The notes: a model not told the origin generated them from the letters alone. 35,233 nt of DNA from an uncultured Chthoniobacterales bacterium (GCA_964243185.1 CAXTFX010000001.1:1-35233); one strand, 5' to 3'; shown: positions 441 to 35,017, counted from the first letter of the stretch. Numbers and translations are program-made.

Positions 441-616
441 GCTGCCAGCATACCGCGCCATCCCGCGCCACGCTATCCCTCTGCCGCGCCTGTGCGCGTT
501 GTGTGCGCGATACGAACGGGGTTAGCCGCGGAAATGAGTGGGACGGCGCGGAACAGCTAAAAAGATAACTCCCGCATAAGCTGCTTACCCGCAGCATTTA
601 CGAGGTAAAAAGCGGG

Positions 617-689
617 CACTCCCACCGAGAATCGAACTCGGAATATTCGGTTTAGAAGACCGATGCTTTATCCGTTAAGCTATGGGAGC
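617..689 (-). tRNA. tRNA-Arg (anticodon TCT)
   Basis: The reverse complement folds as a 73-nt cloverleaf: acceptor GCTCCCA/TGGGAGT, D stem GCTT/AAGC, anticodon stem TCGGT/ACCGA with loop CTTCTAA (anticodon TCT), T arm CCGAG-TTCGATT-CTCGG. No CCA is encoded. Confidence 0.9.
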
Positions 690-793
690 AAGCGGGGGGC
701 AGACACCGCTGCCTCCGGCGAGCGTGCCTCCCGCACCCGTTCCTGTCAACCGGACCTGACAGCGTGAGCGCTGCGGTCGGGCGCCGGGCGGTC

Positions 794-5284: not shown

Positions 5285-5483
5285 CGGCTCCGGGCGGGGG
5301 GAGGGGGGCGGGGAAACTTCTTGCGGGGCCGGACGCGGAGGCTCCAGCCCGGTTCGGCCGTCGGCTCGGGGCCGGCCGGCGAGGTCTGACAGGTGGGTTT
5401 CAAGGCCGCCTCCAGAAAGGTTTTCCTCTGGAAAACGGCAAACTCGATCCGCGTGGCGCGATTCCGGCTTGGGCTGTTCCCCG

Positions 5484-6290
5484 ATGTCAGACCCCGCCGT
5501 TCACTCCCTCGATCTCGACGTGCCGTCCGGCGGCGCCCCGGACGGGGCGTTCGCCGACGCGATGCAACAACTCGCCGAAGAGGCCCAGGGCGGCCGTGCC
5601 GCGCCCGGCGGCGCGCCGGTGTCCAAGGCGGCGCGGGCCGAGTTTCTGCTGACCATCGGGCAGATGATCCGCCCGCTAGCCGTGGGCGTGGAGAACCTGG
5701 GCGAACGCTTGGGGAAACTCGCTGCCGCCCAAGCTGCCACGGCCGCGCCGGACCTCGCGCCCGTCCACGCGACGCTGGAGGGCATCCGCGGGCAGCTCGG
5801 TCGGATGGGAAACGTCGAGAGCGCCAACCAGAAGCTTTTCGACGCGCTGCACGCGGAATTGAAAGGTTACAAGGACGGGTTCCTCTTCGACTCCATGCAG
5901 AAGCCGTTCGTGCGCGACCTCATCACGCTGTTCGACGACCTCGGCACCCTGTTCGGGCAGCTCGAGGCGCGCCAGGCCAGGGCGTCCGCCGACCCCGGTG
6001 AGACGGAGTTCCTGACGACGTTTTCCCAGAACTTTGACAACGCCCGCCACGGCCTGCGGGAAACCTTCGAGCGCCTGGACGTGGAGCGTCAGGATACCGC
6101 CGCCGGCGAGCCGGTGGACAAGCGGGTCCATCGGGTGATGAGCTTCGAGCCGACGCCCGACGCGGCGCGGGACGGCCGCGTGGCACGCAGCTTGCGGCCG
6201 GGCTTCCACTGGCGCGGTCGTGCCGTGCGCCCGGAAGAGATCGTCGCGTGGCGCTGGACCGAGCCCAAACCCGAGACCACCGTGAGCTAG
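5484..6290 (+). CDS. GrpE-like nucleotide exchange factor (divergent)
   Basis: The C-terminal part aligns by eye with the GrpE beta-domain pattern: RLDVERQDTAAGEPVDKRVHRVMSFEPTPDAARDGRVARSLRPGFHWRGRAVRPEEIVAW (compare GVE.I...G..FDP..H.A.......G.V.....GY...GR..RPA.V.V). The preceding helical part reads LFDALHAELKGYKDGFLFDSMQKPFVRDLITLFDDL. It lies 54 nt upstream of an Hsp70 gene. Confidence 0.7.
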   Translation: MSDPAVHSLDLDVPSGGAPDGAFADAMQQLAEEAQGGRAAPGGAPVSKAARAEFLLTIGQMIRPLAVGVENLGERLGKLAAAQAATAAPDLAPVHATLEGIRGQLGRMGNVESANQKLFDALHAELKGYKDGFLFDSMQKPFVRDLITLFDDLGTLFGQLEARQARASADPGETEFLTTFSQNFDNARHGLRETFERLDVERQDTAAGEPVDKRVHRVMSFEPTPDAARDGRVARSLRPGFHWRGRAVRPEEIVAWRWTEPKPETTVS

Positions 6291-6344
6291 AGATGCCGTT
6301 CCCTGCCCGAGCCTCTGCCCCGCATTCCCAATCCCTCCGTTTTC

Positions 6345-7973
6345 ATGCAACCGTCCATCCCCTTCAGCACGCCCCTGGCCCCGCCCGCCGCCGGGGCGGC
6401 CACCGCCAAGAAGCGCAAGGTTGTCGGCATTGACCTGGGCACGACGTTTTCGGCCATCGCCCACATTGACGCCTACGGCAAGCCGCACATCATCCCCAAC
6501 TCCGAGAGCGAGCGCATCACGCCGTCCGTCATTCTCTTCGACGGCGGCACGGCGGTCGTCGGCACCCTGGCCAAGCAGAACTCGGTCGCGGAGCCCGAGA
6601 AGATCGTGGACTTCGTCAAGCGCGAGATGGGCAAGAGCAAGGAGGAGTTCGCGCGCGAGTTCTCCGGCAAGACCTACACGGCGGAGGAACTGAGCGCGCT
6701 GATCCTACGCAAGCTGAAGAAGGACGCCGAGCGGTATCTGGACACCGTGGTGACCGACGCGGTCGTCACCGTGCCGGCGTATTTCAACGACTCCGAGCGC
6801 ACCGCGACCATCACCGCCGGTCAGCTCGCGGGTCTGAACGTGTTGCAGGTCATCAACGAGCCGACGGCGGCCTCGCTGTCCTACGGCCTGGACAAGCTCG
6901 ACGAGGACCAGACGGTGTTCGTCTTCGACCTCGGCGGCGGCACGTTCGACGTGACCATCATGCGGATCGAGAACCGGGGCATCAAGATGCTCGCCACCAA
7001 TGGCGACCACCGGCTCGGGGGCAAGGATTGGGACGACGTGATCGTGAACCTCGTCGCGGAGGAGTTCGACCGGCTGCACGGTGAGAACCCGCTGCTGGAC
7101 CTGCAAAGCTACCAGGAACTCCAAACCCGCGCCCTGGCCTCCAAGATCCAGCTCTCCAGCCGCCCGCGCACGACCCTGGTGCATTCCCACAACGGCAAGA
7201 GCATCAAGGTGGAGTTGAGCCGGGACGAGTTCGAGAACTTCTGCGCGCACCTCGTCGAAAAGTGCAAGACCATCTGCGAGATCGTTTTGCAGGAGGCGCA
7301 CATGACCTGGAAGGACGTTGACAAGGTGCTCCTCGTGGGCGGCATGACCCGGATGCCCATGATCCGCCACATGATCGCGGAGGTGTCCGGCCTGCCGATG
7401 GCCGACCAGGTTTCCCCGGACGAAGCCGTGGCCGTCGGCGCCGCCATCCAGGGCATCCTCTGCCTGCTGGCGGAGGAGGAGAAAGCCGCGCCGGAGGAGA
7501 AAACGGTGTCGGAGGAAACACGCGAGCGGTTCTCCACCCGGGAGGGCGGTCTGATCCAGGTCACGAACATCACCAGCCACACCCTGGGCGTCGTGCTCTG
7601 GAACGACGGCACCCTGGAGGAATACGTTTACCCGATGATCAAGAAGATGACGCAGATGCCCTGCGAGTTGAAGAACCGCTTCGGCACCTCCCAGGCCAAC
7701 CTGCAACGGGTGATCGTCCGCGTCGTCGAAGGCGAGAGCACGGTCCCCGGCGAGTGCACCGTGCTGGGCACCTGCACCATTGACCTGCCGGCGTTCCTGC
7801 CCAAGGGCGCGCCGGTGGAGCTGACCTACCAATACGACACCAGCCAGGTGCTGCACGTTACCGTGGATGCGTTTGGCAACCAGAGCAAAGCCACCATCGA
7901 GCGGCACACGGGATTGTCCAAGGACGAGATCGCCAGCGCCACGGCGAGCCTGTCGTTGATCAACGTCGAGTGA
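6345..7973 (+). CDS. Hsp70-family ATPase, paralogous, lacking the C-terminal helical lid
   Basis: The actin-fold motifs are intact: VGIDLGTTFS (phosphate 1), VFDLGGGTFDV (phosphate 2), VLLVGGMTRMPMI (adenosine). A beta-sandwich SBD-like region is present (LIQVTNITSHTLGVVL...VRVVEGES...). The protein ends at 542 aa, so the roughly 100-aa lid of DnaK is absent. Confidence 0.9.
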   Translation: MQPSIPFSTPLAPPAAGAATAKKRKVVGIDLGTTFSAIAHIDAYGKPHIIPNSESERITPSVILFDGGTAVVGTLAKQNSVAEPEKIVDFVKREMGKSKEEFAREFSGKTYTAEELSALILRKLKKDAERYLDTVVTDAVVTVPAYFNDSERTATITAGQLAGLNVLQVINEPTAASLSYGLDKLDEDQTVFVFDLGGGTFDVTIMRIENRGIKMLATNGDHRLGGKDWDDVIVNLVAEEFDRLHGENPLLDLQSYQELQTRALASKIQLSSRPRTTLVHSHNGKSIKVELSRDEFENFCAHLVEKCKTICEIVLQEAHMTWKDVDKVLLVGGMTRMPMIRHMIAEVSGLPMADQVSPDEAVAVGAAIQGILCLLAEEEKAAPEEKTVSEETRERFSTREGGLIQVTNITSHTLGVVLWNDGTLEEYVYPMIKKMTQMPCELKNRFGTSQANLQRVIVRVVEGESTVPGECTVLGTCTIDLPAFLPKGAPVELTYQYDTSQVLHVTVDAFGNQSKATIERHTGLSKDEIASATASLSLINVE

Positions 7974-8000
7974 TGCCTTTGGTGGTTTGTCGTTCCCCCT

Positions 8001-9755
8001 ATGGCGCTCCCTTCCCCCATCCCGGACGACCCACGCAAGTGGGACGGTTGGAACCGCTACGAATCCGATAACCTCTACGACCGGCTCGGGCTGACCCTGG
8101 AGGAGAACCCCAGCGATAGCCTCATCGAGGAGAACTGCCGGCAACTGCTGGTCTGGTGGCAGAAGAAGCTGCCCCTCAAGAACCAGCCCTCCAACCCCAT
8201 CGCCCAACTCCTGCGCGGGGGGATGGATCACGCGCCAGGCCGCCTCTCGGAAGCGCGGGTGGAGCTGCTGAACCCCGCCAACCGCGCCCGCCACGACGAG
8301 CGCCTGCTGGCCGCCCGCCGGGAGGGGTCCATGGTCGAGTTCGACCGGTTCCTCCAGTTCGCCCTGGGCAAGGGCGTTCTCACCGACGAGGAGGAAAAGC
8401 ACCTTTACCGGCTCGGCCGGGCCCTCGGTCTGGGCACCGAGGACATGCGGGGCGCCATCGAAGCCGGCCTCGCGGGCACCGGTGCCCAACGCCAGGCGAA
8501 CCTGCCGCTCCCGACCGCCACCGCTTCGACGGGCGCGCCCACCGTGGAAAGCGTGGCCGCCGCCGTTGCCGTGGCGGGCGCCGGGCCGGGGCGCCCGCCG
8601 GACACCCGCCGCGTGCGCCGGGAGCGGGTGAACGACCCGGCGGAGGAATTCCGGCGGATGCTGCGGCTCTCCGGCCTCGACGGCGACGCGATGACCGACG
8701 ACCAGCGCGACACTTTCATCAACATGGCCGAGAACCTCGGCCTCGACCCCGGTGACGCGGAGGACCTGGTTGACGATTACCTGGAGGACATGGACTCCCC
8801 GGAGGGCGTCGCCCCCGCCGCCCCCGCGCCGGTGGCTGCCGTCAGCCCCGCGCGGATCGGCACCAACCGGATCAACCATCCGCGCATCGCCCTGGCCAAC
8901 GGGAGCCGCCCGCTCGGCGGCGCCCCCAATGGGGCCGCGCCGGGCCGCTCGACCCCGCTGCTGGGCGCGAACGGCACCCCGGCAGAGGAACTCACCCCGG
9001 CGGAGGAGCGCGTCCGGTTCCCGAAGTTCATCAACACGCTCGGGGGTGAGATGCTCCTCATCCCCGCCGGCACGTTTAACATGGGCAGCGACGCGGCGGG
9101 CGCGCCGGCCAACGAGGCGCCGCTGACCCGGGTGACCCTCACGCGCTACCATGTTTCCCGGCAGCCGGTCACCAACGAACAATACGAGAAGTTCGACCCC
9201 GCCCACCGCGCCAAGCGCGGGGCGCGCGCCGGCGACGACCACCCGGTGATCTACGTTTCCAGCCTGGAGGCCATCAAGTTCTGCCACTGGCTCGGCCAGC
9301 GCGAGCGCCGGCGCTACCGCCTGCCGAGTGAGGCGGAATGGGAATACGCCGCCCGCGGGCCGGACGGCCGCTCGTTCCCCTGGGGCGAGGCGTTTGGACA
9401 GGGCAACCTGGCCAATTTCGCCGACCGCAACACCCGGTTCGCCTGGAGCGACCCGGAGATTGACGACGGCTGGGCGGAGACCTCTCCTGTCGGCAACTAC
9501 CCGCTCGGGGCGAGTCCCTTCGGGGTAGAGGACTGCGCGGGCAACGTTTGGGAGTGGTGCCTGGACTACTACGAGCCTTACAAGGGCACGGAGCGCACCA
9601 ACCCCCGCGGCCCGATGCACGGCGCCCAGCGCGTGCTGCGCGGCGGGAGCTGGCAGTCCCGTTTCGCCAGTCTGAAAACCACTACTCGGAAGTTCAACCA
9701 GCCGGCCTTCGCTTCCAGCGACGTGGGTTTCCGCGTGGTGTGCGAGTGCGAGTAG
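8001..9755 (+). CDS. J-like (HPD-less) domain protein with tandem helical repeats and C-terminal FGE-sulfatase (SUMF1/EgtB/PvdO-type) domain
   Basis: The N-terminus NLYDRLGLTLEENPSDSLIEENCRQLLVWWQKKL...ARVELLNPANRARHD has J-domain helix I-IV spacing but no HPD. Two similar 44-aa repeats occur at 8340-8471 and 8649-8783. A Pro/Ala linker follows. The C-terminus reads MLLIPAGTFNMGS...HPVIYVSSLEAIKFCHWL...YRLPSEAEWEYAARG...GNVWEWCLDYY...RVLRGGSW...VGFRVV, the classic FGE-sulfatase signature. Confidence 0.85.
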   Translation: MALPSPIPDDPRKWDGWNRYESDNLYDRLGLTLEENPSDSLIEENCRQLLVWWQKKLPLKNQPSNPIAQLLRGGMDHAPGRLSEARVELLNPANRARHDERLLAARREGSMVEFDRFLQFALGKGVLTDEEEKHLYRLGRALGLGTEDMRGAIEAGLAGTGAQRQANLPLPTATASTGAPTVESVAAAVAVAGAGPGRPPDTRRVRRERVNDPAEEFRRMLRLSGLDGDAMTDDQRDTFINMAENLGLDPGDAEDLVDDYLEDMDSPEGVAPAAPAPVAAVSPARIGTNRINHPRIALANGSRPLGGAPNGAAPGRSTPLLGANGTPAEELTPAEERVRFPKFINTLGGEMLLIPAGTFNMGSDAAGAPANEAPLTRVTLTRYHVSRQPVTNEQYEKFDPAHRAKRGARAGDDHPVIYVSSLEAIKFCHWLGQRERRRYRLPSEAEWEYAARGPDGRSFPWGEAFGQGNLANFADRNTRFAWSDPEIDDGWAETSPVGNYPLGASPFGVEDCAGNVWEWCLDYYEPYKGTERTNPRGPMHGAQRVLRGGSWQSRFASLKTTTRKFNQPAFASSDVGFRVVCECE

Positions 9756-9777
9756 GCGCCGGAGTTCGGTCCACAGG

Positions 9778-10046
9778 TGACGCAGATATCCGCAGATTAT
9801 TTTCTGAGGTGGAGAAAGGCGGGCAAACGCTTCTAGCAGTAGCGGGCGCAACTTGACCGGCGGCGACGGGTAGGGCGGCCTCTATCCCTAGGCCGCCGCT
9901 GGAAAGCGCGCCGAAAGCGGAAAACCGCGGCGGGCGAGGGATAGTCCGCCCTACCCCCGCCGCCGCCGAGGTTGCCAAACTGAGGCCCGATCCCCCTGGT
10001 CGAAACTCCGAACCCCCTCTGAAATAATCTGCGGATATCTGCGTCA
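9778..10046. repeat. nested palindromic (REP/MITE-like) element between convergent genes
   Basis: The outer arms are a perfect 25-bp inverted repeat: tgacgcagatatccgcagattattt at 9778-9802 and its reverse complement at 10022-10046. The inner inverted repeat is gggtagggcgg..ctatccct at 9868-9889 against 9937-9956. No credible ORF lies inside. Confidence 0.9.
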
Positions 10047-10069: not shown

Positions 10070-10342
10070 TTACGCGGTTGCCGGAGCCGCCGCGCTCGGG
10101 GCCGGGCTGGCGGAGGCGCCACCGGGGGCGGCGTTGGCGTTGCCGTTCGGGTTGAAGCGGAACTTCACCTTGTTGCGCTTGGCGTTGGCCTTGGCCTTGC
10201 GTTTAGTTTTTTGGGTGGGCGTCTCATAGGCGCGCAGGCGGCGCACCTCTTCCATGATGCCCTCGCTGTCCATCTTGGACTTCAGGCGTTTGAGGGCGCG
10301 GTCAACGGGTTCCCCTTTGCGGACTTGGACTTCGGCTGGCAT
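10070..10342 (-). CDS. rpsU: 30S ribosomal protein S21
   Basis: MPAEVQVRKGEPVDRALKRLKSKMDSEGIMEEVRRLRAYETPTQKTKRKAKA is the S21 signature. An Asn/Ala/Pro-rich C-terminal tail is appended. Confidence 0.95.
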   Translation of the reverse strand: MPAEVQVRKGEPVDRALKRLKSKMDSEGIMEEVRRLRAYETPTQKTKRKAKANAKRNKVKFRFNPNGNANAAPGGASASPAPSAAAPATA

Positions 10343-10405
10343 GGCTGGTTTTTCTGGTTTGGTGTTCTCTCGGTTTAGTGGAGCGGAATGGTGAAAAGAA
10401 AGGGG

Positions 10406-12886
10406 TCAGGCCCGGGCCGGCAGCACGGGGACCGCCGCGACGGGTGACTTGTTGGGCCGGTTCACCTGCGCGCGCAGGTCGTTGCCCTGGTCGCCGCGGG
10501 AGCGGGAAAGCCACAGCACGATGGGCGAGGCCACGAAAACGGACGAATACGTTCCCACGATGACGCCGATGAGCATGGCGAGCGCGAAATCGTGCAGCAC
10601 CGGGCCGCCGCCGATGAACAGCGCGAACACGGTGATGAACGTGGCGCCCGCCGTGAGGAGGGTGCGGCCCAGCGTCTCGTTGATGGAGGCGTTCATGATC
10701 TCGCGCACGCTCCCGCGCCGGCCCTCCTTCAGACCGGAGCGGATGCGGTCATAGACCACGATGGTGTCGTTGATGGAATAGCCCGCGATGGTCAGCACGG
10801 CGCCGACCATTACCAGCGACAGTTCCCGGCCGAGCAGCGCGAACACGCCCACCGTGATGACGATGTCGTGCAGCAGGGCCACGACGGCGCCGATGGCGAA
10901 GGAGAACTCAAACCGCAGCGACACGTAAGCCAGGATGCCCAGCACGCCGAGCCCGAAGGCCAGGGCGGACTTGGTGGCCAACTGCTTGCCGACGAGGCTG
11001 CCCACGCTGTCCGACTGCAAAGTCTTCAGCCCGGCGGCCGGCAGCGCCGCGCGCAGGGCCTGCTCGATCTTCGGCCCCGAGCCGGCGTTGGCGCGGATGT
11101 CCACGAACTGCTCCTCCCCGCGGCGCTCCAACTGGACGACGCTTTCGCGCTGGTCCGCCGGGAGGGCGGCGCGCACCTGTTCAGTGGTGAGGGTCTGGTT
11201 CGTGGACAGGACCAGGAGGTCGCCCCCCTTGAAATCAATGCCGAAGTTCCGCTGGCCCCGGAGGGTGAACGCCGCGGCGCAGAACAGGATGACGACGGTG
11301 GAAGCGACCAGGCACCAGCGCGCCATCCCCATGAAGTCGAAGTGCCGCTTCGGGGTGAAGTCCAGCATCCGCACCTTCGTCAGCCCACCCACGTCCGTAG
11401 CCCAGGCGAACAGGTTGCGCGTGACGATCAGGGCCGCGAAGAGCGAGGCGATGATGCCCACGGTCAGGGTGACGGCGAAGCCCTTCACCGGCCCGGAGGC
11501 GTAGTAGAACAGGAGGATGGACGTGATGAGCGTCGTGACGTTGGCGTCAATGATGGACGACAGCGCCTTGCGAAAGGCGCCTTCCAACGCGGCGCGGAGG
11601 TTCTTGCCGGCGTGTAGCTCCTCGCGCAACCGCTCGTAAATCAGCACGTTGGCGTCAATGGCCGTGGCGATGGTCAGGATCACGCCCGCGATGCCCGGCA
11701 GCGTCAGCACAAAGCCGAACAGGCTCATCACGCCGAAGAGCAGCGCGACGTTGACCAGCAGGGCGATGAACGCGAGCACGCCGGCCAGCCGGTAGTAGAG
11801 CAGCACGAACCCGAAGGTCAGCGCCAGCCCGAGCAGGCCGGAGACGATGCCGGCCCGGATGGAATCGGCGCCGAGCGTGGCCGAGACGCTGCGTTCTTCC
11901 AGGATGCGGACGGGGGTTTGCAGCGGGTTCTCCAGGACGCTGGCGAGGTTGCGGCACTCCGTTTCGCCCATGGAGCCGCCGGTGATCTGGGCGGAGCCGC
12001 CGGTGATCGCCTCGTTGAGGTTGGGCGCGGACACCACCTTGCCGTCGAGCATGATGGCCAACTGCTCGTGGACGTGCGCGCCGGTCAGTTCCGCAAACTG
12101 CCGGCCGCCCTCCCCGTCGAAGTTCAGCGAGACGCCCCAACCCCGGATGTCGAAGAACGGGTAGGCGCTCTTGACCCGCTCGCCGGTCATGTCGGCGCGG
12201 GCGTGGACGACGATCTCCTCGGTGACTTTCTTCTCGTGCGCGGGGTCCTTGGCCGGGTTGTTCATCAGCGCGTTGGTGCGGCTGAGTCGGTTGGACGGTC
12301 CCGAGGTCGCGCCGTCGGTGCGCTCGGTGCGCTCCTCGACCTCCACCCGGTAGCCCGGCGGGATGATGGGCGTCTGCCCGGCCTTGCGCTGGGCGATGAT
12401 GGAAGCGCTCTGCGGGTGGACCAGGCGGAACTCCAGCTTGGCGACGCGCTGGAGCTGGTCGCGCGCCTCGGCGATCTTGGCCGTGTCCAGGCCGGGAATC
12501 TGGACGAGGATCTGGTCCTCGCCGACCGGGGAGATCACGGGCTCGCCGACGCCGAACTTATCCACGCGGGAGCGGATGACCTCCACGGCCTGCTCCTGGG
12601 CGGCGGGGGAAATCTTGCTGTCCGCGGTTTCGCGCACGAGCCGGATCAGGAACGCCGTGCCGCCCTTGAGGTCCAGGCCCAGGCGGATCTTGCCCGGTTG
12701 AACGAGCTTGCCGCCCGCGTCCCGCACGTCAAAGGGCGGCCAGACGGAGGCCACGCACAGGATCGTCAACAGCGCGGTCAGGGCGAGGCCGAGGATGCGC
12801 TTGAGCCGGCCGGGGTCCGCCGAAAAATACCAGATGAACAGCGCCAGGACGGCGAGGCCGAGGAAGAACGTGACGACCGGGGACAT
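10406..12886 (-). CDS. secDF: protein translocase subunit SecDF (fusion)
   Basis: The 826-aa protein has the SecD periplasmic domain (LGLDLKGGTAFLIRL...) and two 6-TM blocks with SecD/SecF motifs (GIAGVILTIATAIDANVLIYERLREEL; IAGYSINDTIVVYDRIRSGL). Confidence 0.95.
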   Translation of the reverse strand: MSPVVTFFLGLAVLALFIWYFSADPGRLKRILGLALTALLTILCVASVWPPFDVRDAGGKLVQPGKIRLGLDLKGGTAFLIRLVRETADSKISPAAQEQAVEVIRSRVDKFGVGEPVISPVGEDQILVQIPGLDTAKIAEARDQLQRVAKLEFRLVHPQSASIIAQRKAGQTPIIPPGYRVEVEERTERTDGATSGPSNRLSRTNALMNNPAKDPAHEKKVTEEIVVHARADMTGERVKSAYPFFDIRGWGVSLNFDGEGGRQFAELTGAHVHEQLAIMLDGKVVSAPNLNEAITGGSAQITGGSMGETECRNLASVLENPLQTPVRILEERSVSATLGADSIRAGIVSGLLGLALTFGFVLLYYRLAGVLAFIALLVNVALLFGVMSLFGFVLTLPGIAGVILTIATAIDANVLIYERLREELHAGKNLRAALEGAFRKALSSIIDANVTTLITSILLFYYASGPVKGFAVTLTVGIIASLFAALIVTRNLFAWATDVGGLTKVRMLDFTPKRHFDFMGMARWCLVASTVVILFCAAAFTLRGQRNFGIDFKGGDLLVLSTNQTLTTEQVRAALPADQRESVVQLERRGEEQFVDIRANAGSGPKIEQALRAALPAAGLKTLQSDSVGSLVGKQLATKSALAFGLGVLGILAYVSLRFEFSFAIGAVVALLHDIVITVGVFALLGRELSLVMVGAVLTIAGYSINDTIVVYDRIRSGLKEGRRGSVREIMNASINETLGRTLLTAGATFITVFALFIGGGPVLHDFALAMLIGVIVGTYSSVFVASPIVLWLSRSRGDQGNDLRAQVNRPNKSPVAAVPVLPARA

Positions 12887-14710: not shown

Positions 14711-15271
14711 ATGAAACCCGCACCGTTCCCCCGTCTGCTCGCCACCCTCGCCCTGCTCACCGCCGCCACCGCCCCGCTCGCGGTGTCATCCCCCGCCCGG
14801 GCGCAGGAAGCCGCCGTAGCCGAGCACCGGCTCCAGGGCAGCTTCTCCTACGTCGCCGCGGGCAGCGACAGCATTGATAAGAGCATCGAAAAGACGGTGG
14901 CCGACCTGAATTTCATCGTCGCCCCCATCGCCAAGAGCCGGCTGACGAAGACCAATTCCATCTACCGGAAAGTCACCTTCGAGTTCAGCGGCAACCAGGT
15001 TTCCATCGTCACGGGCAACCGGGCGCCGATCAAGACCGGTCTGAACGGTGCGCCCATCAAGTGGACCCGGGAGGACGGCGAGGTGCTCGATTACTCCACC
15101 ACGCTCGCCGGCGACACCATCCGCCAGAAGTTCGTGGCCAAGGACGGTCAGCGGGTCAACGAATACACTCCGAGCGCCGACGGCCAGGGGCTGACGATGA
15201 AGGTGACGGTCTCCAGCCCGAAGCTCAAGGAGCCGCTGATCTATCGGTTAGCTTATAAGAAAGGGGCTTGA
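14711..15271 (+). CDS. secreted protein of unknown function
   Basis: The ATG at 14711 gives MKPAPFPRLLATLALLTAATAPLAVSSPARAQEA, a Sec signal with an ARA-QE cleavage-like site. The mature part is beta-rich. No family was recognised. Confidence 0.7.
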   Translation: MKPAPFPRLLATLALLTAATAPLAVSSPARAQEAAVAEHRLQGSFSYVAAGSDSIDKSIEKTVADLNFIVAPIAKSRLTKTNSIYRKVTFEFSGNQVSIVTGNRAPIKTGLNGAPIKWTREDGEVLDYSTTLAGDTIRQKFVAKDGQRVNEYTPSADGQGLTMKVTVSSPKLKEPLIYRLAYKKGA

Positions 15272-15361
15272 GATCATAACGCCGGTTCGCAGACCCCGGG
15301 CCTCCGCCGACCAAAGCGAGCCAAGGCAGCGCCGAAGTGACCTGAGTAGCCGTTTTGAAAG

Positions 15362-15990
15362 CTAAACGAGATTCAACGCAAGCTGGTTGTGCCACTTGCT
15401 TGTCTGCCCCGCCTGTCGGCGCGTGAGCAGCCGAACCGTGCAGACAAACAGGTTTGCTTCCGAGTGTTCACGCTTGGCTTCGGCGTTGCGCCAGAGCGTG
15501 CGACAGCGGTAGAACCGAGCAAAGGCGCGTTCCACGACCCATCGCTTGGGCAAGAGTTGCCAGCCCTTCTTGCCCGGCTCGCGTTGCGCGATCCGCATGT
15601 CCCAGCCAAAGCGCCGCTTAATTTCCGCCGTGAGGTCTTTGCCCCCATAGCCTTGGTCCGCGCGCACCGTTTCCAGCCGCGTGACCGCCGCTTTTGTTTG
15701 GGGCGCCCATAGCCGCCGCCGCTCCAGACGCTCCTGCGGGATCTGCCCCCGGGCGGCGTGAGCGAGCACGCCCATGCGCTCCAGCGCCTTTCGTTCGCCC
15801 AGGGCAAGTTCGGGTCGGCGACCAGCCCCGCGCGCCGGCACGCCCCGGACTTTCCCCGCGCTCCGCCCCGGTGGTGATGTTCAAGGCGCGCACCTCCGTC
15901 GCGCCCATCCATCAAGCATCGGAGCGCTGGCAACGGTGTGCCGGTATCTCCCCACTGTGGAATCCCGGGAGCTCGGCTGGGCGCTGCGGC
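15362..15990 (-). mobile_element. IS5-family (DDE_Tnp_1) transposase remnant, frameshifted and 5'-truncated
   Basis: The C-terminal part is intact in one frame (15362..15841): RADQGYGGKDLTAEIKRRFGWDMRI...LLPKRWVVERAFARFYRCRTLWRNAEAKREHSEANLFVCTVRLL. Upstream catalytic segments (RDSTVGRY..., MDGATEVRALNITTGAERGES) lie in two other frames. Confidence 0.75.
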
Positions 15991-16121
15991 TGACCCATTG
16001 CTAGCCGTGGTCAGCCCCCGGCGCATCCGCCGGCTGCCGGACCGGGTTCCCGGGGTGAAAGGCGGTTGGCTCAGGGGTTGGACACGGGGCGGGAACATTC
16101 GCTTCCCTGGCCGGGGACGGG

Positions 16122-17333
16122 ATGCCGTGCGACGGAGTGCCAGCCGACGTGCATCCCGCTGCTACCGCCGAACCACCCCTCGCCTTCGCCTCCGACGCCC
16201 CCGCGCCCCGGACGCCGTCGCCCGTGCCCTCCCCGGAGGCCACCCCGCCGGCGCTTCCCCTGACGGCCGTCTGTGACCTGGCCGACGTCAACGCCTTCTC
16301 CCACTGCGGTTTCCAGCCCCACGTGCCGGTCCTGGCCGCCTTTGGGGCCGGTCGCTTGCACAAGTATCATACCCCCGGCCTCTGGGATCTGGAGGCCGCC
16401 GTGGCCAGCACCCCGGCCGAGACCCTGTTCCGCTCGGTGCGCGCCGTGGACCCCGAGTCGAAGCTCTCCCGCTGGGAGGCCCTCACCTTCCGCCTGGGGC
16501 CCCACGCCTTCCTCTACGTGGACGCCACCGACCTGACCGGCTACGCCGACACGGCGGCCGGGGCCCAGCGGCTGGTCGAGGACTTCGCGGCCAAGCACGC
16601 CAAAGCGGCGCCGTCCGCGGGCGGCTCCTTCTTCCTCATCAAGACGGACGGCCGGGAGATTGACACCGAGCCCGTGCCCCTCGAAGCGGAGACCCTCCTC
16701 GCCCCCGGGCTTTTCGCCCTGCACTACGGCGAGGAGGGCGCCACCTGGCACCGGGGCTTCACGGAGAAGCTGCGCGCGGCCAGGTGGGGCCTGTGCATCC
16801 TGGAGGGCAGCCCCGGCACGGGCAAGACCTCGTATCTGCGCCACCTCACCGGCGAGTTGAAGGACACCCACCGCTTCTACTTCATCCCGCCGGCCAGCCT
16901 GGAGGTGCTCTCCTCCCCCGACTTCATCGGCTTCTGGGCCGGGGAGCGCCGCCACCACGCCGAGCGCCAGTTCGTCGTCATCCTGGAGGACGCCGACGCG
17001 GCGCTCATGCCCCGGGCGGCCGACAACCGCAGCCAGGTCAGCGCCATCCTGAACTTCTCCGATGGCATGCTCGCCGACTTCCTGCGCCTGGAGGTCATCT
17101 GCACGGTCAACGCCCGCGCGCTGGACCTCGACCCCGCCCTGCTGCGTCCGGGCCGTCTGCTCCGCCACCGCCGCTTCGGCCGGATGGAGGCCGCCCGCAC
17201 CCGCCGGCTGGCCGAGCACCTGGGCCGGAACCTGCCCGCGGGAGAGGACTCCTCGCTGGCCGAGGTGTATGCCGGCGGGGACCGAGACTCCGGGGCGGCC
17301 CCGCGCCGTCCACGCCTGGGTTTCACGGCGTGA
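16122..17333 (+). CDS. AAA+ ATPase (classical AAA clade, BCS1-like layout) with unknown about 200-aa N-terminal domain
   Basis: Motifs present: Walker A LEGSPGTGKTSYL, Walker B QFVVILEDADAAL, sensor-1 VICTVN, arginine-finger region LDPALLRPGRL. The N-terminal half has no recognisable family. Confidence 0.85.
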   Translation: MPCDGVPADVHPAATAEPPLAFASDAPAPRTPSPVPSPEATPPALPLTAVCDLADVNAFSHCGFQPHVPVLAAFGAGRLHKYHTPGLWDLEAAVASTPAETLFRSVRAVDPESKLSRWEALTFRLGPHAFLYVDATDLTGYADTAAGAQRLVEDFAAKHAKAAPSAGGSFFLIKTDGREIDTEPVPLEAETLLAPGLFALHYGEEGATWHRGFTEKLRAARWGLCILEGSPGTGKTSYLRHLTGELKDTHRFYFIPPASLEVLSSPDFIGFWAGERRHHAERQFVVILEDADAALMPRAADNRSQVSAILNFSDGMLADFLRLEVICTVNARALDLDPALLRPGRLLRHRRFGRMEAARTRRLAEHLGRNLPAGEDSSLAEVYAGGDRDSGAAPRRPRLGFTA

Positions 17334-17445
17334 GGCGGGCATCCCCCGACAAAGTTACCGACTACCCCCGAGGGTGACAAATTCGCCTGACGCCGGGTCC
17401 AGACAATGCTTCCGTCCACCTCGATCCCCACCCGCCCCCAGCCGG

Positions 17446-18850
17446 ATGTCCCCTAACATCACCCCCGCGCTCAACCTGCTCTACGGAGCGGAGGAACGCC
17501 GGCTCGGGGCTCGGCGCGCCATCTGCGGGCTGCTCGGCCAGCGCGAGGAGTCATCACTCACGCGCCTGCTCATCGAGGGCTCGCGCCGGCTCGGGCCCGC
17601 GCGGCTGGACGGGCTGCTCGCCGCCGCCGCCAAGTCCGTGGCCGACCACCGCTTCGCGCGCGACGTCAACGACTGGGCCTTCCAAAACTTCTGGGACAAT
17701 CCCCCTCGAGCCGCGCCACTCCAGGCTGCTCGGCTGGTTCCTCGATCCCGACGCGGAGCACGGCTGCGGGACGTTTCTGTTGGGGAGCCTGCTGCGCTTC
17801 CTCCTGAACGAAGGGCGCCCACCCCGCCACCGCTCCCTTCTCTCGGAGGGCTGCCGGGTCATCGTCGAAACCGAATACATGGACCTATGCACCGAGTGCG
17901 ACGAGCCGGAGAGGTTCGCCGTGCTCATCGAAGACAAGGTCAACGGGGCCGTTGACCAGCACATGCAACTCTCCGGGTATGTTACGAAGCTCCTGGCCAA
18001 AGGGTCGAGCCCGGAGAGATCTTCGTCCTCTACGCCCCCCTCAACCGCGGCCGGCAGCCGGCGGCCGATGACCAGGCTGCGCTAAAAGCGTTGGAGGTGA
18101 ACTGGCAGAGCACCCCGTTCTCCACCCACTTCCTGCCCTGGCTGGACGCCGGGCTCAAGGATGGCGATGCCGGCGGGGGAAAGTCGGACGGGGCGGACCA
18201 TCTGGGCCGGGCGATGCGCGAGAACCTCTCCCACTATCGCAACCTTCTGCGTTACCTCGTCAACCAAGGAAAGAAACAACGCATGGACCACAAAATCTTA
18301 CAACAACTCCAACGTGCCCAACGGATAGAAACCTTTCTTACCTTCAAATAGATCGAAGACCTGGCAACCGCGGTTGGCGAACTGCGCGACTGCCTGTAGG
18401 CCAGCTTGCGGGGTAAGCTGCTGCGGCGCATCCATCAGCCCCTACAGGACCGGGGGGAGAACGCGCGCCTCCTCGACAGTGAAGGTAGGGAGGTGTCCGC
18501 TTCCTCGGACGCCGAGCTCAACGAAGCCTTCCTGCAGGAAGTTAACCTCTTTCTGCCGGTCAATGACGCGGTGCACGTCGGCTTCGGCGGCGACCAGGAA
18601 CAAAGCCCCGGGCAGATCTTCGGACCGGCTACTTCCGGGCCGGTGGCAGCCAGGACGAGCAGAAGAAGCTGGAAGCCGTCATCCCCGAGGCCAACCCGAA
18701 GGACAAATACTGGTATGCCGTTTACTACGACGCCCGGATCAACCACGCGAACTGCTCGGAGGAGGCGACGGCGCTCGAGGTCGTGACCACCCTCCTCGGC
18801 ATGCGTGAGAACCTCTTCCAGCGGCTCAAGGAGTCGAGCGGCCTGTCGTA
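17446..18850 (+). pseudogene. PD-(D/E)XK nuclease family gene (PDDEXK_4-like), disrupted
   Basis: The reconstructed reading matches the family pattern E..HS..L.WLLdP...Hg; it gives ...NFWDN(P)LEPRHSRLLGWFLDPDAEHGCGTFLLGSLLRFL...RVIVETEYMD...RFAVLIEDKVNGAVDQHMQLSGYVTKL...EIFVLYAPLN.... Lesions are a +1 shift in the C5 run at 17701-17705, a -1 shift at the G run 18002-18004, in-frame TAG codons at 18349 and 18397, and another shift near 18612. Confidence 0.7.
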
Positions 18851-28192: not shown

Positions 28193-28267
28193 GGGCGGTT
28201 AGCTCAGCGGTAGAGCGGCTCGTTTACACCGAGTTGGCCGGGGGTTCGAATCCCTCACCGCCCACCA
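28193..28267 (+). tRNA. tRNA-Val (anticodon TAC), CCA encoded
   Basis: The cloverleaf reads GGGCGGT-TA-GCTC-AGCGGTA-GAGC-G-GCTCG-TTTACAC-CGAGT-TGGCC-GGGGG-TTCGAAT-CCCTC-ACCGCCC-A-CCA. All four arms pair, and the anticodon is TAC. Confidence 0.9.
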
Positions 28268-28327: not shown

Positions 28328-29023
28328 ATGACCCACAAAATATCGCTCTTCCTAGCCGCGGGCGCGGCGCTGCTGCTCGCCCCGTTGTCCTCTTCCCACG
28401 CGCAACGTTACGGCGGCGGCGGCAGCCGGCTGGGGGCCTTCGCGGGCGGCGGTGGAGCCCGGTCCGGGGCCGTCAACAGCGCCGCCGGGGCCCGCGGCTA
28501 CAACGGGGCGTCGTTCCGCAACAACCGTAACTTCTACCGGGGCGGTTACGGCGGCTACTACGGTGGCCGTTCCCGCTACTTCTACCGGGGGTCCTACTAC
28601 TACTATGACCCGTTCTTCTTCGGCGGGTTCGGCTACCCTTACTACTACGGCGGTTACGGGCCGGGCTTCGGCGTGGGCTACTACGGCTACGGGGGCTACG
28701 GTTACGGCGACGGCCCCTACGGGGACCGCGTTTACAGCGGGCGCATCGCTTCCGAGGTGAACGGCGGCCGCCGGGGCGGCGGCGACGACGATGAGGACGG
28801 TGACGAGCGGGGCGGCCGCGGGGGACGCTACTCGCCGAACTCAATGGCCCGCGCCGTCCAAAGCGAGCTGAAGGAGCGCGGCTACTACCGGGGTTCCGTG
28901 GACGGGCAGTTCGGCGCCGGCACGGCCAGCGCCCTCCGCAGCTTCCAGCGGGAAAAGGGGCTGAAGGTCACGGGCCGGCTCGACGAGCGCACGCTCAAGG
29001 CGCTCGGCTTCGACCAACGTTAA
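28328..29023 (+). CDS. secreted Gly/Tyr/Arg-rich low-complexity protein with C-terminal peptidoglycan-binding (PG_binding_1-like) domain
   Basis: The signal is MTHKISLFLAAGAALLLAPLSSSHAQ. About 110 aa follow of GGYGGYYGGRSRYFYRGSYYYYDPFFFGGFGYPYYYGGYGPGFGVGYYGYGGYGYG, then an acidic patch. The C-terminus is AVQSELKERGYYRGSVDGQFGAGTASALRSFQREKGLKVTGRLDERTLKAL. Confidence 0.85.
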   Translation: MTHKISLFLAAGAALLLAPLSSSHAQRYGGGGSRLGAFAGGGGARSGAVNSAAGARGYNGASFRNNRNFYRGGYGGYYGGRSRYFYRGSYYYYDPFFFGGFGYPYYYGGYGPGFGVGYYGYGGYGYGDGPYGDRVYSGRIASEVNGGRRGGGDDDEDGDERGGRGGRYSPNSMARAVQSELKERGYYRGSVDGQFGAGTASALRSFQREKGLKVTGRLDERTLKALGFDQR

Positions 29024-31152
29024 ATGGCGGCCGGGCCGCCGCCCCCCGGTGCGGGCAGGCGCAGGTCGTAGGTCAATAGCTCGGGGCTGGACCGCTGGCA
29101 GGAGTTGCCGGGGTCCGGCCCCCGTTCGGGCGACGGGACCCGCTGGAACTGCCGCTGGTTTTCCTCCAGCCGGTAGGCGTCTTGGACCGGGTGGTCCGGG
29201 GTCGGGGAGGTGATGAGCACCTCCAGCGGCAGGTGCGGCGGGATGCCGGGGTGCAGGGACGGGTAGAGGGCCGTGCGCCGGTAGCGCAGGCCGGCCCCGA
29301 CGACATTCACGCTCAACGGGTTGTTCAGCGACAGCTCGCGGCCGTGGACCCAGACGCGGTGCGCCCGCGCCCACCCCGGCGCGGCGGCGAATTCCAGGCG
29401 CTCGATGGACGTGTCCACGAAGCGGCTCGTGCTCCCGCCCTCGCTCGGCGTCTCCGAGAGCAGCGGCCAACCCTCGCAGGCGCGGCGCACGGTGAGGCCG
29501 TCCGTTCGCAGCAAAGCCGGGAAGCGCCACTCCCACAGCGGGCGGAAGGCCGCCTCCTCGAACGCGAACCCCGCGGCGCGCAGGTCGTGGAGGACGCGGC
29601 GGAAGTCTTCCCACAGCGGCGTGGGCAGGAAGTAGGCGTCGTGCAGCCGCAGGCCGTGGCGCGCCAGCGGCGGCAAGGGCTGGCCGGAGCGTTCCAGGGT
29701 CAGCGCGGCCAGCCCGTGCCAGAGCAGGGCGACGAGGGCCATCCAGTCCGCGCGCGGCAGGCTCTCGATGGCGCGGAACTCGATCAGCCCCGCCGCGGCC
29801 CCGACCGGGCCGGAGAGGTTCCAGAATTTATCGAACGACGTCTCGGAGAGGTGCCCGTTGCCGGAAACGTCCACGTGCAGGTGGCGCAGGGTTTCGCCGA
29901 TCTGGTAGGCGTGATTCTCGCCGGCGGGCAGGCCGGCGAGGTGGCGGTAGCCCATCTCGAGGTCGTAGAGGTCGCGGGCGGATTCGTCCGGCCGCGGGGC
30001 CTGCGAGGAGGCGCCGACGTATTGGCCGGTGAAGGCGTAGGCCAAGCAGGGGTGGGCTTGGAAATAGGCCAGCAGCGTTGCCAGCCACGCCGGGCGGGTG
30101 AAGAAAGGGTTTTCCTCGAGGGACGGCCCGCCGAACAGGAGGTGGTTGCCGCCGCCGGTGCCGAGTTCGGCGCCGTCGGGCAGCCGTTTCCACGAGCGCA
30201 GGCCGACGGCGGCCCCGGCCGTTTCCAGGTCGGACAACCAGCGGGCGTATTCGGACCAATTTTCGCAGGGCGGCAGGTTGACCTCCAGCACGCCGGGGTC
30301 GGCGGTCAGCCCGAGGCGCCGCCACGCGCCGGAGTCGCTGGCGGGCACGTAGCCGTCGAGGCGGACGGCGTGGATGCCGGCGTCCTCCAACTCTTCGTAA
30401 ATGGCGGCGAGCAGCTCCCGCCAGGGGGCTTGCAGCAGCGGCGGCAGGAAGACGCGCAGGGCGCCGTCCCCGGGGTCGGTTTCCACCGTCAACGCCCGGC
30501 GCAGGGCGTCGGGCGGCAGCGTCCCCAGCGGCAGCCGCAGCCCCGCCCCCCCGGCGGCGTTGACCAGGGGCAGGAAGCGGGCGCGGCCCGCGGTTCTCAG
30601 CAGCCCGCGCCACGCGCCGGCCGCGTCCGTGAACCAGCGTTCGCCGTCGTGGTCCAGCGGCAGGGCGTGGGCGGTGGCGGCGGCGTGGCGGCGGCCGGTC
30701 GGGGAAACCTCGTCCCGCGCGGGCAGCCAGGCGTCCGCGGGCAGACCGAGGCGGGCGGCGAGGCGGCGGCGGAAGGCGGGCAGGGATTTTAGGTTTTGGA
30801 CTTTGGACTTTGGACTTTCCTCCTCCGCGGGGATGGCCGGCGGGTGGGGGGCGAGCGGGGGGCCGCCGTCCGGGTTCCAGAGGAGGTTGAGCACCCAGCG
30901 CGGGTTTGTCTCGCCGGGGTAACGTTTGCCGGGGGAAAGGACCGCCGCGGCCCCGGGGGTGATGCCCCGGCCGATGAGCGTCCCCGCCAGGCGGTAGGCG
31001 TGTCGCAGCTTGGTGGGGCCGACGGCCGCCACGAGCCACTCGGCGCCCTGCGGGTCGTCGGGGACCAGCGTGGGCTCGCCGCCGAGGGTCAGGCGCACGC
31101 CCGCGGCGGCGAGGCGGGCTTCAATGGCGGCGGCGACTTCGGGGGCGTTCAT
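29020..31152 (-). CDS. DUF2126 (putative amidoligase) domain protein, stand-alone
   Basis: The ATG at 31152 gives MNAPEVAAAIEARL. Motifs recalled from DUF2126 are LGTGGGNHLLFGGPSLEENPFFTRPAWLATLLAYFQAHPCLAYAFTGQYVGASSQAPRPDESARDLYDLEMGY and IEFRAIE. No transglutaminase domain is fused. Confidence 0.8.
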   Translation of the reverse strand: MNAPEVAAAIEARLAAAGVRLTLGGEPTLVPDDPQGAEWLVAAVGPTKLRHAYRLAGTLIGRGITPGAAAVLSPGKRYPGETNPRWVLNLLWNPDGGPPLAPHPPAIPAEEESPKSKVQNLKSLPAFRRRLAARLGLPADAWLPARDEVSPTGRRHAAATAHALPLDHDGERWFTDAAGAWRGLLRTAGRARFLPLVNAAGGAGLRLPLGTLPPDALRRALTVETDPGDGALRVFLPPLLQAPWRELLAAIYEELEDAGIHAVRLDGYVPASDSGAWRRLGLTADPGVLEVNLPPCENWSEYARWLSDLETAGAAVGLRSWKRLPDGAELGTGGGNHLLFGGPSLEENPFFTRPAWLATLLAYFQAHPCLAYAFTGQYVGASSQAPRPDESARDLYDLEMGYRHLAGLPAGENHAYQIGETLRHLHVDVSGNGHLSETSFDKFWNLSGPVGAAAGLIEFRAIESLPRADWMALVALLWHGLAALTLERSGQPLPPLARHGLRLHDAYFLPTPLWEDFRRVLHDLRAAGFAFEEAAFRPLWEWRFPALLRTDGLTVRRACEGWPLLSETPSEGGSTSRFVDTSIERLEFAAAPGWARAHRVWVHGRELSLNNPLSVNVVGAGLRYRRTALYPSLHPGIPPHLPLEVLITSPTPDHPVQDAYRLEENQRQFQRVPSPERGPDPGNSCQRSSPELLTYDLRLPAPGGGGPAAI
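30798..30818. repeat. tandem heptamer tract (GGACTTT)x3 inside the DUF2126 CDS
   Basis: Three exact copies lie at 30798-30818, flanked by degenerate copies from 30787. On the coding strand the tract is translated in frame as EESPKSKVQNLKS. Confidence 0.85.
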
Positions 31153-31955: not shown

Positions 31956-31996
31956 GGTCCCGGTGGTCCTTTTCTCGTCATTCGTCATTCGTCACT
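31877..31996. repeat. imperfect inverted repeat built from GACGAAG / CGTCATT heptamer tracts
   Basis: (GACGAAG)x4 lies at 31877-31904. CGTCATT CGTCATT CGTCACT lies at 31976-31996. The arms are complementary at 6 of 7 positions per unit and are separated by about 70 nt containing the ATG at 31955. The right arm contains the TGase-2 stop (31992-31994). Confidence 0.8.
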
Positions 31997-32879: not shown

Positions 32880-32998
32880 AGGGACCGCGCCGTCCACCAC
32901 GAAGGGAGTTTTGTCCATCGCATTCCGCGTCCGGGCGCTACCCGGGGTTGACAACCGCGGTCCCTCGCTTACATCCCGCGCACCGGTCACCGGTGTTC

Positions 32999-34036: not shown

Positions 34037-34068
34037 CCGGGGGGTTTAAACGCCACCGTTGTCAACGC

Positions 34069-34992: not shown

Positions 34993-35017
34993 GCGGAGAG
35001 GAAGCACGGTCACGGGG

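Follow-up and report, generated by a model that had tools for sequence, protein, structure and literature searches.

A 35,233-nt stretch of DNA from an uncultured Chthoniobacterales bacterium (the window, to which all coordinates refer unless another locus is named) carries three plus-strand genes for a GrpE-like protein, an Hsp70 without its helical lid, and a J-like protein fused to a domain of the formylglycine-generating enzyme (FGE)-sulfatase fold (5484-9755). What is such an Hsp70 machine for? A first interpretation, made from the DNA alone (the sequence-only reading), had set this triad apart from the housekeeping chaperones and regarded it as an accessory module. We found that the triad is an operon passed on vertically throughout the order, within a housekeeping neighborhood, and that both sides of its J-Hsp70 interface differ from those of DnaK and DnaJ, the differences being conserved. 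On balance, we consider it probable, though by no means assured, that the triad is a private ("orthogonal"), client-dedicated Hsp70 cycle, devoted to a single specific task and not to general folding. The open reading frames (ORFs) were found at the positions first assigned to them, with gaps of 54 and 27 nt:

5484-6290, plus strand: GrpE-like gene, 268 aa from the ATG at 5484
6345-7973, plus strand: Hsp70 gene, 542 aa
8001-9755, plus strand: third (fusion) gene, 584 aa

The three proteins

The Hsp70 and its predicted exchange factor are laid out as follows (NBD and SBD, nucleotide- and substrate-binding domains):

6414-7457, plus strand: Hsp70 NBD, residues 24-371
Hsp70 residues 373-408, plus strand: acidic insertion of about 30 residues, followed by the altered interdomain linker IQVTN
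7569-7910, plus strand: Hsp70 SBDβ, residues 409-522
5898-6233, plus strand: core of the GrpE-like protein, residues 139-250 (PF01025)

Pfam matched the Hsp70 to PF00012 with an E value of 2.2e-121, over positions 1 to 509 of the 599 in the profile, and the helical lid (SBDα) is therefore missing, as the sequence-only reading had proposed. In the alignment with Escherichia coli DnaK, the chain stops about 20 residues past SBDβ, at DnaK position ~530, inside lid helix A. The protein shares 35% of its residues with E. coli DnaK and 30% with HscC of the same species, and its scores (413 and 410 bits) lie below the NCBIfam cut-offs for DnaK equivalogs (648 for NF001413 and 822 for TIGR02350). We then read the conservation of individual residues from 64 orthologues aligned to DnaK, whose numbering was verified against the K-12 sequence. 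The catalytic residues D8, K70, E171, D194, T199, and D201 were retained in all 64, as was F426; the hydrophobic pocket positions were kept, and the arch (M404/A429) reads L/A. With its ATPase residues and peptide pocket preserved in this way, the Hsp70 is predicted to hydrolyze ATP and to bind an extended peptide.

The surface that meets a J-domain has been rebuilt. R167, which in DnaK forms a pair with D35 of HPD, is replaced by Q in 61/64 orthologues, K166 by L in 63/64, and E206 by R in 60/64, and four residues of the J-binding loop at positions 209 to 212 (around D211) are deleted. The interdomain linker, VLLLD in DnaK, reads I(Q/E)V(T/R)(N/D) among the orthologues. Additionally, about 20 residues of lobe I have been lost and five gained in SBDβ loop L1,2.

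The GrpE-like protein matched PF01025 at 3.8e-9 (36.9 bits, with a gathering threshold of 25.8) through residues 139 to 250, which correspond to profile positions 60 to 158 of 165, while its N-terminal ~138 residues are poorly conserved. The exchange factor had been described as highly divergent outside the GrpE beta-domain, which this bears out. Its NCBIfam scores are far below the GrpE equivalog cut-offs (at most about 34 bits versus 176 to 266; best, 34.5 versus 194), and its predicted role is nucleotide exchange on its cognate Hsp70. Translation could begin no earlier than an in-frame TTG at 5469, which would give a protein of 273 aa.

The third protein was analyzed in an alignment of 39 full-length homologues (53 to 81% identity) and in AlphaFold2 (AF2) models, whose per-residue confidence is given as pLDDT:

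8001-8051, plus strand: N-terminal peptide LPxP(L/I)PDDPxKWDGW (AF2 pLDDT 85-90)
8052-8315, plus strand: HPD-less J-type domain, residues 18-105 (fold and profile-profile comparison)
8322-8498, plus strand: long helix and TerB/DjlA-like hairpin 1, residues 108-166 (AF2 helices 92-122, 129-141, and 146-160)
8634-8798, plus strand: TerB/DjlA-like hairpin 2, residues 212-266 (hhalign)
8799-9047, plus strand: Pro/Ala-rich linker, disordered (pLDDT <50 for residues 268-327)
9048-9752, plus strand: FGE-sulfatase-fold domain, residues 350-580 (PF03781, 4.4e-51)
9741-9752, plus strand: C-terminal CEC[D/E], with C581 and E582 invariant and C583 at least 90% conserved

The J-type domain is detectable through profile-profile and fold comparison only. 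Pfam gave no match to PF00226 (DnaJ) in the third protein at E values up to 0.1, and a profile of the N-terminal module run against PDB sequences returned only chance matches to TetR proteins. When the AF2 model of residues 1 to 265 (pLDDT 85.8) was submitted to Foldseek, J-domains made up 7 of the 10 top matches in the PDB, including the J-domain of DnaJ bound to DnaK (5nro_B), with target-normalized TM scores of 0.5 to 0.77. By hhalign, the family profile of the domain matched a J-domain alignment with 98.1% probability (E = 8e-14, 72 columns), and against E. coli DnaJ alone it was colinear over 66 columns (E = 0.05), placing KKLPLKN opposite KYHPDRN. The invariant WWQKKLPLKNQPSNP lies at the junction of helices II and III, where LPL replaces HPD, and KKLPLKN carries this LPL in 39/39 homologues. 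Because the fold matches and the profile homology agree, with LPL aligned on HPD, the N-terminal domain is a true, although HPD-less, J-type domain, as the sequence-only reading had suspected.

The same reading had placed two TerB/DjlA-like repeats behind this domain. This holds for single hairpin units: hairpin 1 aligned to the TerB region of DjlA (residues 137 to 172, E = 3.7e-4), hairpin 2 did so at 0.015, and the two are homologous to each other (E = 3.6e-5). As for a complete TerB domain, Pfam found no match to PF05099 and Foldseek no TerB structure for the N-terminal model. Both hairpins are conserved among the 39 homologues, and the linker that separates them is variable. In front of the J-type domain, columns P6, P8, D9, P11, W14, G16, and W17 of the N-terminal peptide are invariant. 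Neither this peptide (LPxPLPDDPxKWDGW) nor the C-terminal CEC[D/E] is explained by known domain families.

At the other end, the Pro/Ala linker and the FGE-sulfatase domain were both recovered as first described. The linker is poorly conserved, varies in length and sequence across homologues, and contains no transmembrane segment; the FGE domain is strongly conserved. Genuine FGEs are its best matches by sequence and by fold (E ~1e-29), ahead of pFGE (4.5e-21). The matches obtained with Foldseek and phmmer comprise human, Streptomyces, and Thermomonospora FGE, PvdO, and pFGE (structures 1y1j, 2q17, and 6muj). However, the pair of catalytic, Cu(I)-binding cysteines (C336 and C341 in human FGE) is missing: GGSWQSRFAS stands opposite GGSYMCHRSYC of the human enzyme, and the catalytic segment contains no cysteine in any of the homologues. 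With both cysteines gone, an enzyme in the FGE sense, one of the roles first considered, is excluded. The EgtB, OvoA, and SenA equivalog profiles scored 47 to 91 bits against cut-offs of 360 to 420, matching only through their C-terminal FGE-like part, and Pfam found no DinB-like domain of EgtB-type enzymes in the protein. Since the FGE domain is so highly conserved, we rejected diversification of the type driven by diversity-generating retroelements (DGRs). In the whole-protein model (mean pLDDT 70.8), the C-terminal half of the FGE domain is poorly modeled.

Could the triad nevertheless be the divergent housekeeping dnaK-grpE operon of its lineage? We regard this as very improbable. A tblastn search with E. 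coli DnaK and the DnaJ J-domain recovered no lid-bearing dnaK and no canonical J-domain from the window and ~1.3 Mb of related flanks, which would suit that explanation but is uninformative. Against it stand the missing lid, the loss of R167, the absence of an HPD-bearing J-protein, and equivalog scores far below the DnaK and GrpE cut-offs. Moreover, the same type of paralogue occurs in distant cassettes on unrelated metagenomic contigs, some of them beside a second Hsp70 gene. Derived DnaK paralogues are reported only where the genome encodes a bona fide DnaK as well (PMC13580251, a 2026 review), dnaK is present in 98.9% of bacterial genomes (PMC11019930), and DnaK served as a phylogenetic marker for a set of genomes from the Planctomycetes-Verrucomicrobia-Chlamydiae (PVC) group that includes Chthoniobacter (PMC3444138). 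The earlier view that this is not the housekeeping set is supported by the equivalog scores, the missing lid, and the lost R167.

Genomic setting and the wider cassette family

For the fusion protein, more than 120 full-length homologues were found, whose sole annotation is "formylglycine-generating enzyme". A scan of one genome per species returned 177 relatives, and the best 80 came almost all from metagenome-assembled genomes (MAGs) of Chthoniobacterales/Verrucomicrobiota. Synteny was counted in 66 Chthoniobacterales loci with enough upstream DNA. The lidless Hsp70 gene lies directly upstream of the fusion gene in 66/66 (median gap, 18 nt), and the GrpE-like gene is present in all but one (65/66), so that the triad is conserved as a unit across these loci. 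The exception is L035, where an opposite-strand gene and a small ORF take the place of the GrpE-like gene (L035 5000-6450); by eye, the small ORF is pterin-dehydratase-like, with an HHPD-type motif. Identities across loci are 67 to 80% for the Hsp70 (full-length matches), 49 to 58% for the fusion protein, and 33 to 45% for the GrpE-like protein.

In 65/65 loci the gene directly upstream of the triad, on the same strand, is cobA/hemD, preceded by hemC in 60 and hemA in 58, and the hemD stop overlaps the GrpE-like start or lies a few nucleotides from it (median, -4 to +6 nt). On these grounds, the triad is probably the distal, cotranscribed half of a hem operon in most of the Chthoniobacterales. 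A ccsA/hemX-like gene precedes hemA-hemC-cobA/hemD on the same strand (e.g., L001 596-4259, L092 1485-6276, and L005 4091-5611). Downstream, the genes for ribosomal protein S21 and SecDF converge on the triad in most loci, the window included, and L092 has YajC as well.

The hem linkage is missing from the window and from L091, its closest relative at 80% identity. Their upstream context consists of genes for a solute-binding protein and a methyltransferase and a divergent metallo-β-lactamase (MBL)-fold gene, and the triad came through this change intact, having been relocated as one unit. L091 begins with an integrase-core (rve) fragment (L091 4-447), a few kilobases upstream of the rearranged region, and there may be a connection between this fragment and the hem linkage that the sublineage lost. 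The sequence just upstream of the triad and the nearest conserved downstream genes in the window are:

5285-5483, plus strand: intergenic region of 199 nt between the divergent MBL-fold gene and the triad
10070-12886, minus strand: genes for ribosomal protein S21 and a fused SecDF, kept beside the triad in most relatives

In most relatives the counterpart of 5285-5483 is the end of cobA/hemD; in the window lineage this region presumably holds the triad's own promoter. A consensus scan found no sigma-70-like and no terminator-like site in it, gave two promoter-like matches elsewhere, and returned no more terminators than expected by chance. An imperfect inverted repeat, CCAGAAAGG..TTCCTCTGG, lies within this region at 5413-5432. 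No CIRCE-like element was seen by eye upstream of the triad.

The ancestral operon link to hemA-hemC-cobA/hemD makes the handling of tetrapyrroles or metal cofactors the leading guess for the cargo, a speculative one. In a specific version of our preferred explanation, the triad would be a cofactor-handling machine like HscA/HscB/IscU: the FGE-fold domain and the CxC terminus would hold a metal or tetrapyrrole, and the Hsp70 would bind the N-terminal LPxPLP of the fusion protein and drive release to the heme or siroheme enzymes whose genes lie just upstream. In true FGEs, a pair of cysteines binds Cu(I); in CCS, copper is passed on by C-terminal CxC motifs; and the motif of IscU that HscA recognizes is LPPVK. 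The same-strand hem genes directly upstream fit this proposal, as does the invariance or near invariance of the LPxPLPDDP peptide and the CEC[D/E] terminus. However, the window and L091 keep the triad with no hem genes nearby, distant relatives have PDZ, PEGA, or RodZ_C in place of FGE and lack LPxPLP, and no metal or tetrapyrrole site can be read in the sequence, the C-terminal half of the FGE domain being the part that was modeled poorly. We hold this version to be unlikely.

The downstream neighbor bears on another possibility, in which the pseudo-FGE would be a holdase: its FGE domain would bind the CxPxR motif of unfolded sulfatase precursors, and the Hsp70 would hold these in an unfolded state, ready for a true FGE or anSME and for the Sec export route. 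The substrates of FGE are unfolded, Verrucomicrobia are rich in sulfatases, and the inactive paralogue pFGE/SUMF2 is thought to recognize CxPxR of sulfatase precursors. Both the closeness of the domain to genuine FGEs and the adjoining SecDF-YajC in most loci would agree with this. Yet SecDF is on the opposite strand and shares synteny only, no gene for a sulfatase, FGE, or anSME was found in the window or the flanks examined, and relatives exchange the FGE domain for unrelated binding domains. This makes the holdase improbable in our eyes.

The fusion is not a one-off but belongs to a wider family. The N-module profile matched 258 of 1.84 billion representative proteins at E values up to 1e-3, many of the matches being fragments, and a homologue search started from an alignment of distant N-modules (A3) gave one match, owing to a limitation of the word index. 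Distant full-length members have the same N-terminal J-type domain, with its WW motif, and the same hairpin. Their second domain is a Pfam DnaJ domain (E down to 3.8e-22), yet it too is HPD-less (e.g., YINDRN and WNSRASNP); hairpin 2 sits where the distant relatives have this domain (PF00226 at about residues 180 to 250). In the distant sequences that we read by eye, there follow an Ig-like domain with an NGGGG motif and then hydrophobic stretches resembling membrane helices. The C-terminal domain is variable and may be FGE-sulfatase, PDZ, PEGA, RodZ_C, or lectin-like. As the Chthoniobacterales protein has no second J-type domain, no Ig-like domain, and no membrane part, it is, judging from these domain layouts, a soluble, shortened derivative of a mostly membrane-anchored family.

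Five distant loci (L083 to L087) were compared. In all five a lidless-type Hsp70, 40 to 51% identical to that of the window, lies directly upstream of the J-like gene, and a GrpE-like gene precedes it wherever the contig extends far enough. The order GrpE, Hsp70, J-like protein is thus retained at 24 to 51% identity, while the C-terminal domains differ. The complete distant Hsp70s (L083 to L085) stop at the same point as that of the window, and the distant proteins share with it the indels, the nonhydrophobic linker, the replacement of R167 (by Q or A), and a short, conserved tail at the C terminus. In the window, this C terminus (7911-7970) is a short helix with a conserved hydrophobic tail, LINVE, and the complete lidless Hsp70s compared (window, L001, L002, and L083 to L085) share such a tail (LINVE, KIKVE, KACIT, and TTVTS). 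Genes with tetratricopeptide repeats (TPRs) lie 3' of the J-like gene in L083 (10648-11688) and L086 (3384-6050). Given these neighbors, the tail may be a docking motif, by analogy with the pairing of EEVD and TPR. Literature searches found no description of the triad or of the wider cassette, in agreement with the sequence-only reading, and the wider family is apparently undescribed.

In two of the distant loci, a gene that joins an Hsp70 NBD and a partial SBD to a von Willebrand A domain (Hsp70-VWA) lies beside the lidless Hsp70 gene (L083 3743-5779 and L085 1994-4039). The L083 cassette is placed between genes for a DUF87 (HerA-like) ATPase and a rhomboid protein (1-1789) and a NERD-NACHT (STAND) gene (15123-18482). 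This placement hints at conflict-type neighborhoods for some members of the wider family. This brings in the reading of the triad as an ATP-driven conflict or defense sensor-effector, in which the FGE/C-type-lectin-like domain would sense an invader and the Hsp70 would assemble or activate the response. Hsp70 and GrpE do accompany binders fused to DnaJ or TPRs in conflict systems, where FGS domains act as invader binders (PMC7159879), and L083 has NACHT/NERD, DUF87, and Hsp70-VWA genes near its cassette. The Chthoniobacterales triad itself points the other way. Searches against PADLOC-DB 2.0 gave nothing significant for it (weak candidate-model matches at 3e-5 and 0.004; a weak match to PDC-S48 covers fusion residues 116 to 160), and no relative was found in the viral contigs of IMG/VR. 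No DO-GTPase or GAP1 gene was present in the window or in those related loci for which we read the gene table, and GTPase, GAP1, and effector domains were all absent from the window and the 66 related loci. Far from diversifying, the FGE domain is highly conserved, and the triad is inherited vertically at a fixed position among housekeeping genes. We therefore rejected the defense-island setting, with which the label of accessory module also falls; the sensor/effector reading is unsupported, given the PADLOC result and the lack of viral relatives, and we judge it quite improbable.

The rest of the window is ordinary chromosome. GC content at third codon positions (GC3) is 0.84 to 0.92 in the three triad frames, a coding signature. 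An antisense ORF of 1,048 aa (6705-9851, minus strand) lies opposite the Hsp70 and fusion genes; the tabulated GC3 rows leave it out, and codon-position GC alone does not exclude it. It is probably an artefact of the ~70% GC content, because the plus-strand genes that it overlaps have strong family matches. An Rfam scan of the window found only two tRNAs:

614-690, minus strand: tRNA-Arg(TCT)
28193-28267, plus strand: tRNA-Val(TAC)

A cluster at 29020-35013, unrelated to the triad, comprises a DUF2126 (putative amidoligase) gene, two transglutaminase-like genes (Bact_transglu_N), and a methyltransferase gene, and is interrupted by a fatty-acid desaturase gene.

A proposed dedicated Hsp70 cycle

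The triad would serve a lineage-wide housekeeping function of the Chthoniobacterales, and it is predicted to be cytoplasmic, since it has neither a signal peptide nor a transmembrane segment. In the dedicated cycle that we favor, the J-type domain and the TerB-like hairpins would dock the fusion protein onto its cognate Hsp70 only, and the altered interface on both partners would insulate the pair from DnaK/DnaJ. At the other end, the catalytically dead FGE-fold domain would bind the cargo or ligand. Driven by ATP hydrolysis and by GrpE-type exchange, the SBD of the Hsp70 would then cycle on and off a short segment, provided either by a client held by the FGE domain or by the fusion protein itself, which could thus be adaptor, client, or both. 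A candidate segment is the N-terminal LPxPLP peptide (LPSPIPDDPRKW), by analogy with the binding of LPPVK of IscU by HscA. Each cycle would remodel or release the cargo. Because the lid is absent, clamping would be fast and of low affinity, which would suit a dedicated client bound repeatedly. Precedents for dedicated Hsp70 systems exist in HscA/HscB and HscC/DjlC (PMC8215388) and in StkA (PMC4319316).

Several points weigh against this reading. The HPD motif is held to be indispensable for the stimulation of the Hsp70 ATPase by J-domains (PMC10410713), and the LPL domain may therefore only tether or regulate the Hsp70, or not touch it at all. The single Foldseek E values for the J-fold are nonsignificant (0.3 to 5), and the J-domain alignment that hhalign matched at 8e-14 is made up mostly of second J-type domains from the relatives themselves. 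The hem genes could owe their place to an inherited gene order with no functional meaning: the downstream S21 and SecDF genes are as conserved as the hem genes, and the window shows that the linkage is dispensable.

A broader proposal goes further, and we offer it tentatively, as a possibility that we would not yet call likely. The lidless Hsp70s may form a fourth, unnamed class of bacterial Hsp70 beside DnaK, HscA, and HscC, having their own GrpE and working with HPD-less J-partners through a coevolved interface (R167 to Q and the loop deletion on one side, LPL and WW on the other). In Chthoniobacterales, this class would have been recruited, as a soluble pseudo-FGE fusion, into a tetrapyrrole operon to serve a cofactor or a biosynthetic enzyme.

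How a generalist motor gains specificity is best modeled by dedicated systems like HscA/HscB and HscC/DjlC, of which bacteria have few. The cassette is a compact example from nature: the J-Hsp70 interface is altered on both sides, and the "indispensable" HPD has become an invariant LPL. If the pair is functional, it offers a direct test of HPD as a universal requirement and a possible source of orthogonal Hsp70/J modules for engineering. In the Chthoniobacterales, which are known mainly through MAGs from soil, it is also a conserved, unexplained companion of the heme biosynthesis genes in their operon. The wider membrane-anchored cassettes, with their interchangeable extracytoplasmic binding domains, may link envelope sensing to a cytoplasmic chaperone.

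Comparison with known systems

The triad resembles DnaK-DnaJ-GrpE in its three roles (ATPase, J-type partner, and GrpE-type factor) and in the retained catalytic residues and SBDβ pocket. It differs in having no lid or C-terminal tail (542 aa, compared with ~640 aa for a housekeeping DnaK), in the linker (IQVTN rather than VLLLD), and in the rebuilt J-interface. Unlike DnaJ, the third protein has no HPD, G/F region, zinc finger, or client-binding domains, and the gene order is grpE-hsp70-J. DjlA likewise combines a TerB-type helical unit with a J-type domain. However, DjlA is membrane anchored, has the reverse domain order and a complete TerB, and its canonical HPD J-domain works with DnaK, whereas the third protein has just two single hairpin units and no match to PF05099.

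The FGE-fold half has relatives in pFGE/SUMF2, PvdO, and other non-FGE members of PF03781, which share the C-type-lectin-like fold and lack the catalytic cysteine pair; the fusion family is set apart from all of these by its J-type fusion, its Hsp70 neighbor, and its own invariant C-terminal CEC[D/E]. For the HPD-less J-type half, the eukaryotic J-like proteins Pam16/Tim16 and DNAJB13 are regulators or tethers rather than stimulators of the ATPase, but they have no private Hsp70 with an altered J-interface. DNAJB13 is noted among the HPD-less J-proteins (PMC10410713). Hsp70 and GrpE also occur with variable binders fused to DnaJ or TPRs in GAP1-N2 DO-GTPase systems (Kaur et al. 2020, PMC7159879). 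Those systems, from Actinobacteria and Firmicutes, have DO-GTPase and GAP1 genes and FNIII repeats as their defining features, all of which the triad lacks.

Closer parallels are found among the dedicated Hsp70s. In Myxococcus xanthus, StkA is a 540-aa DnaK homologue that is not heat induced and acts as a pathway-specific regulator of exopolysaccharide (PMC4319316), and MXAN_6672-6671 (GrpS-SglK) is a paralogous grpE-dnaK bicistron (PMC11019930). The neighbors of StkA are the SCP2-like StkB and StkC, no J-like-FGE partner has been reported for it, and we liken it to the triad by description only. HscA-HscB-IscU is likewise built on a dedicated Hsp70, whose J-protein brings one cargo and which recognizes a proline-containing motif, LPPVK. 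The triad may be an analogue in which the J-type module and the candidate motif, LPxPLP, are carried by the cargo-binding protein itself. HscB, however, retains HPD; HscA possesses a lid and works without GrpE; and the triad has no iron-sulfur (Fe-S) scaffold.

HscC (YbeW) with DjlB/DjlC, which makes up the third Hsp70 system in E. coli, resembles the triad as a specialized, non-heat-shock Hsp70 with dedicated noncanonical J-proteins. Indeed, the window Hsp70 carries three indels of HscC: the lobe-I deletion (DnaK 76-101), the deletion of the D211 loop, and an insertion of four to eight residues in L1,2. All three are characteristic of HscC (PMC8215388), although the lobe-I deletion is also found in many nonproteobacterial DnaKs (Mayer 2021, PMC8215388). 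HscC differs in keeping R167 and a shortened lid (550 to 580 aa), in its HPE J-partners, and in being thought GrpE independent, whereas the triad has no lid, Q at position 167, its own GrpE-like gene, and the LPL motif. DjlC was rejected as a homologue of the third protein, with which it has no detectable similarity. Overall, dedicated Hsp70 systems are a known theme, of which the triad appears to be a new variant.

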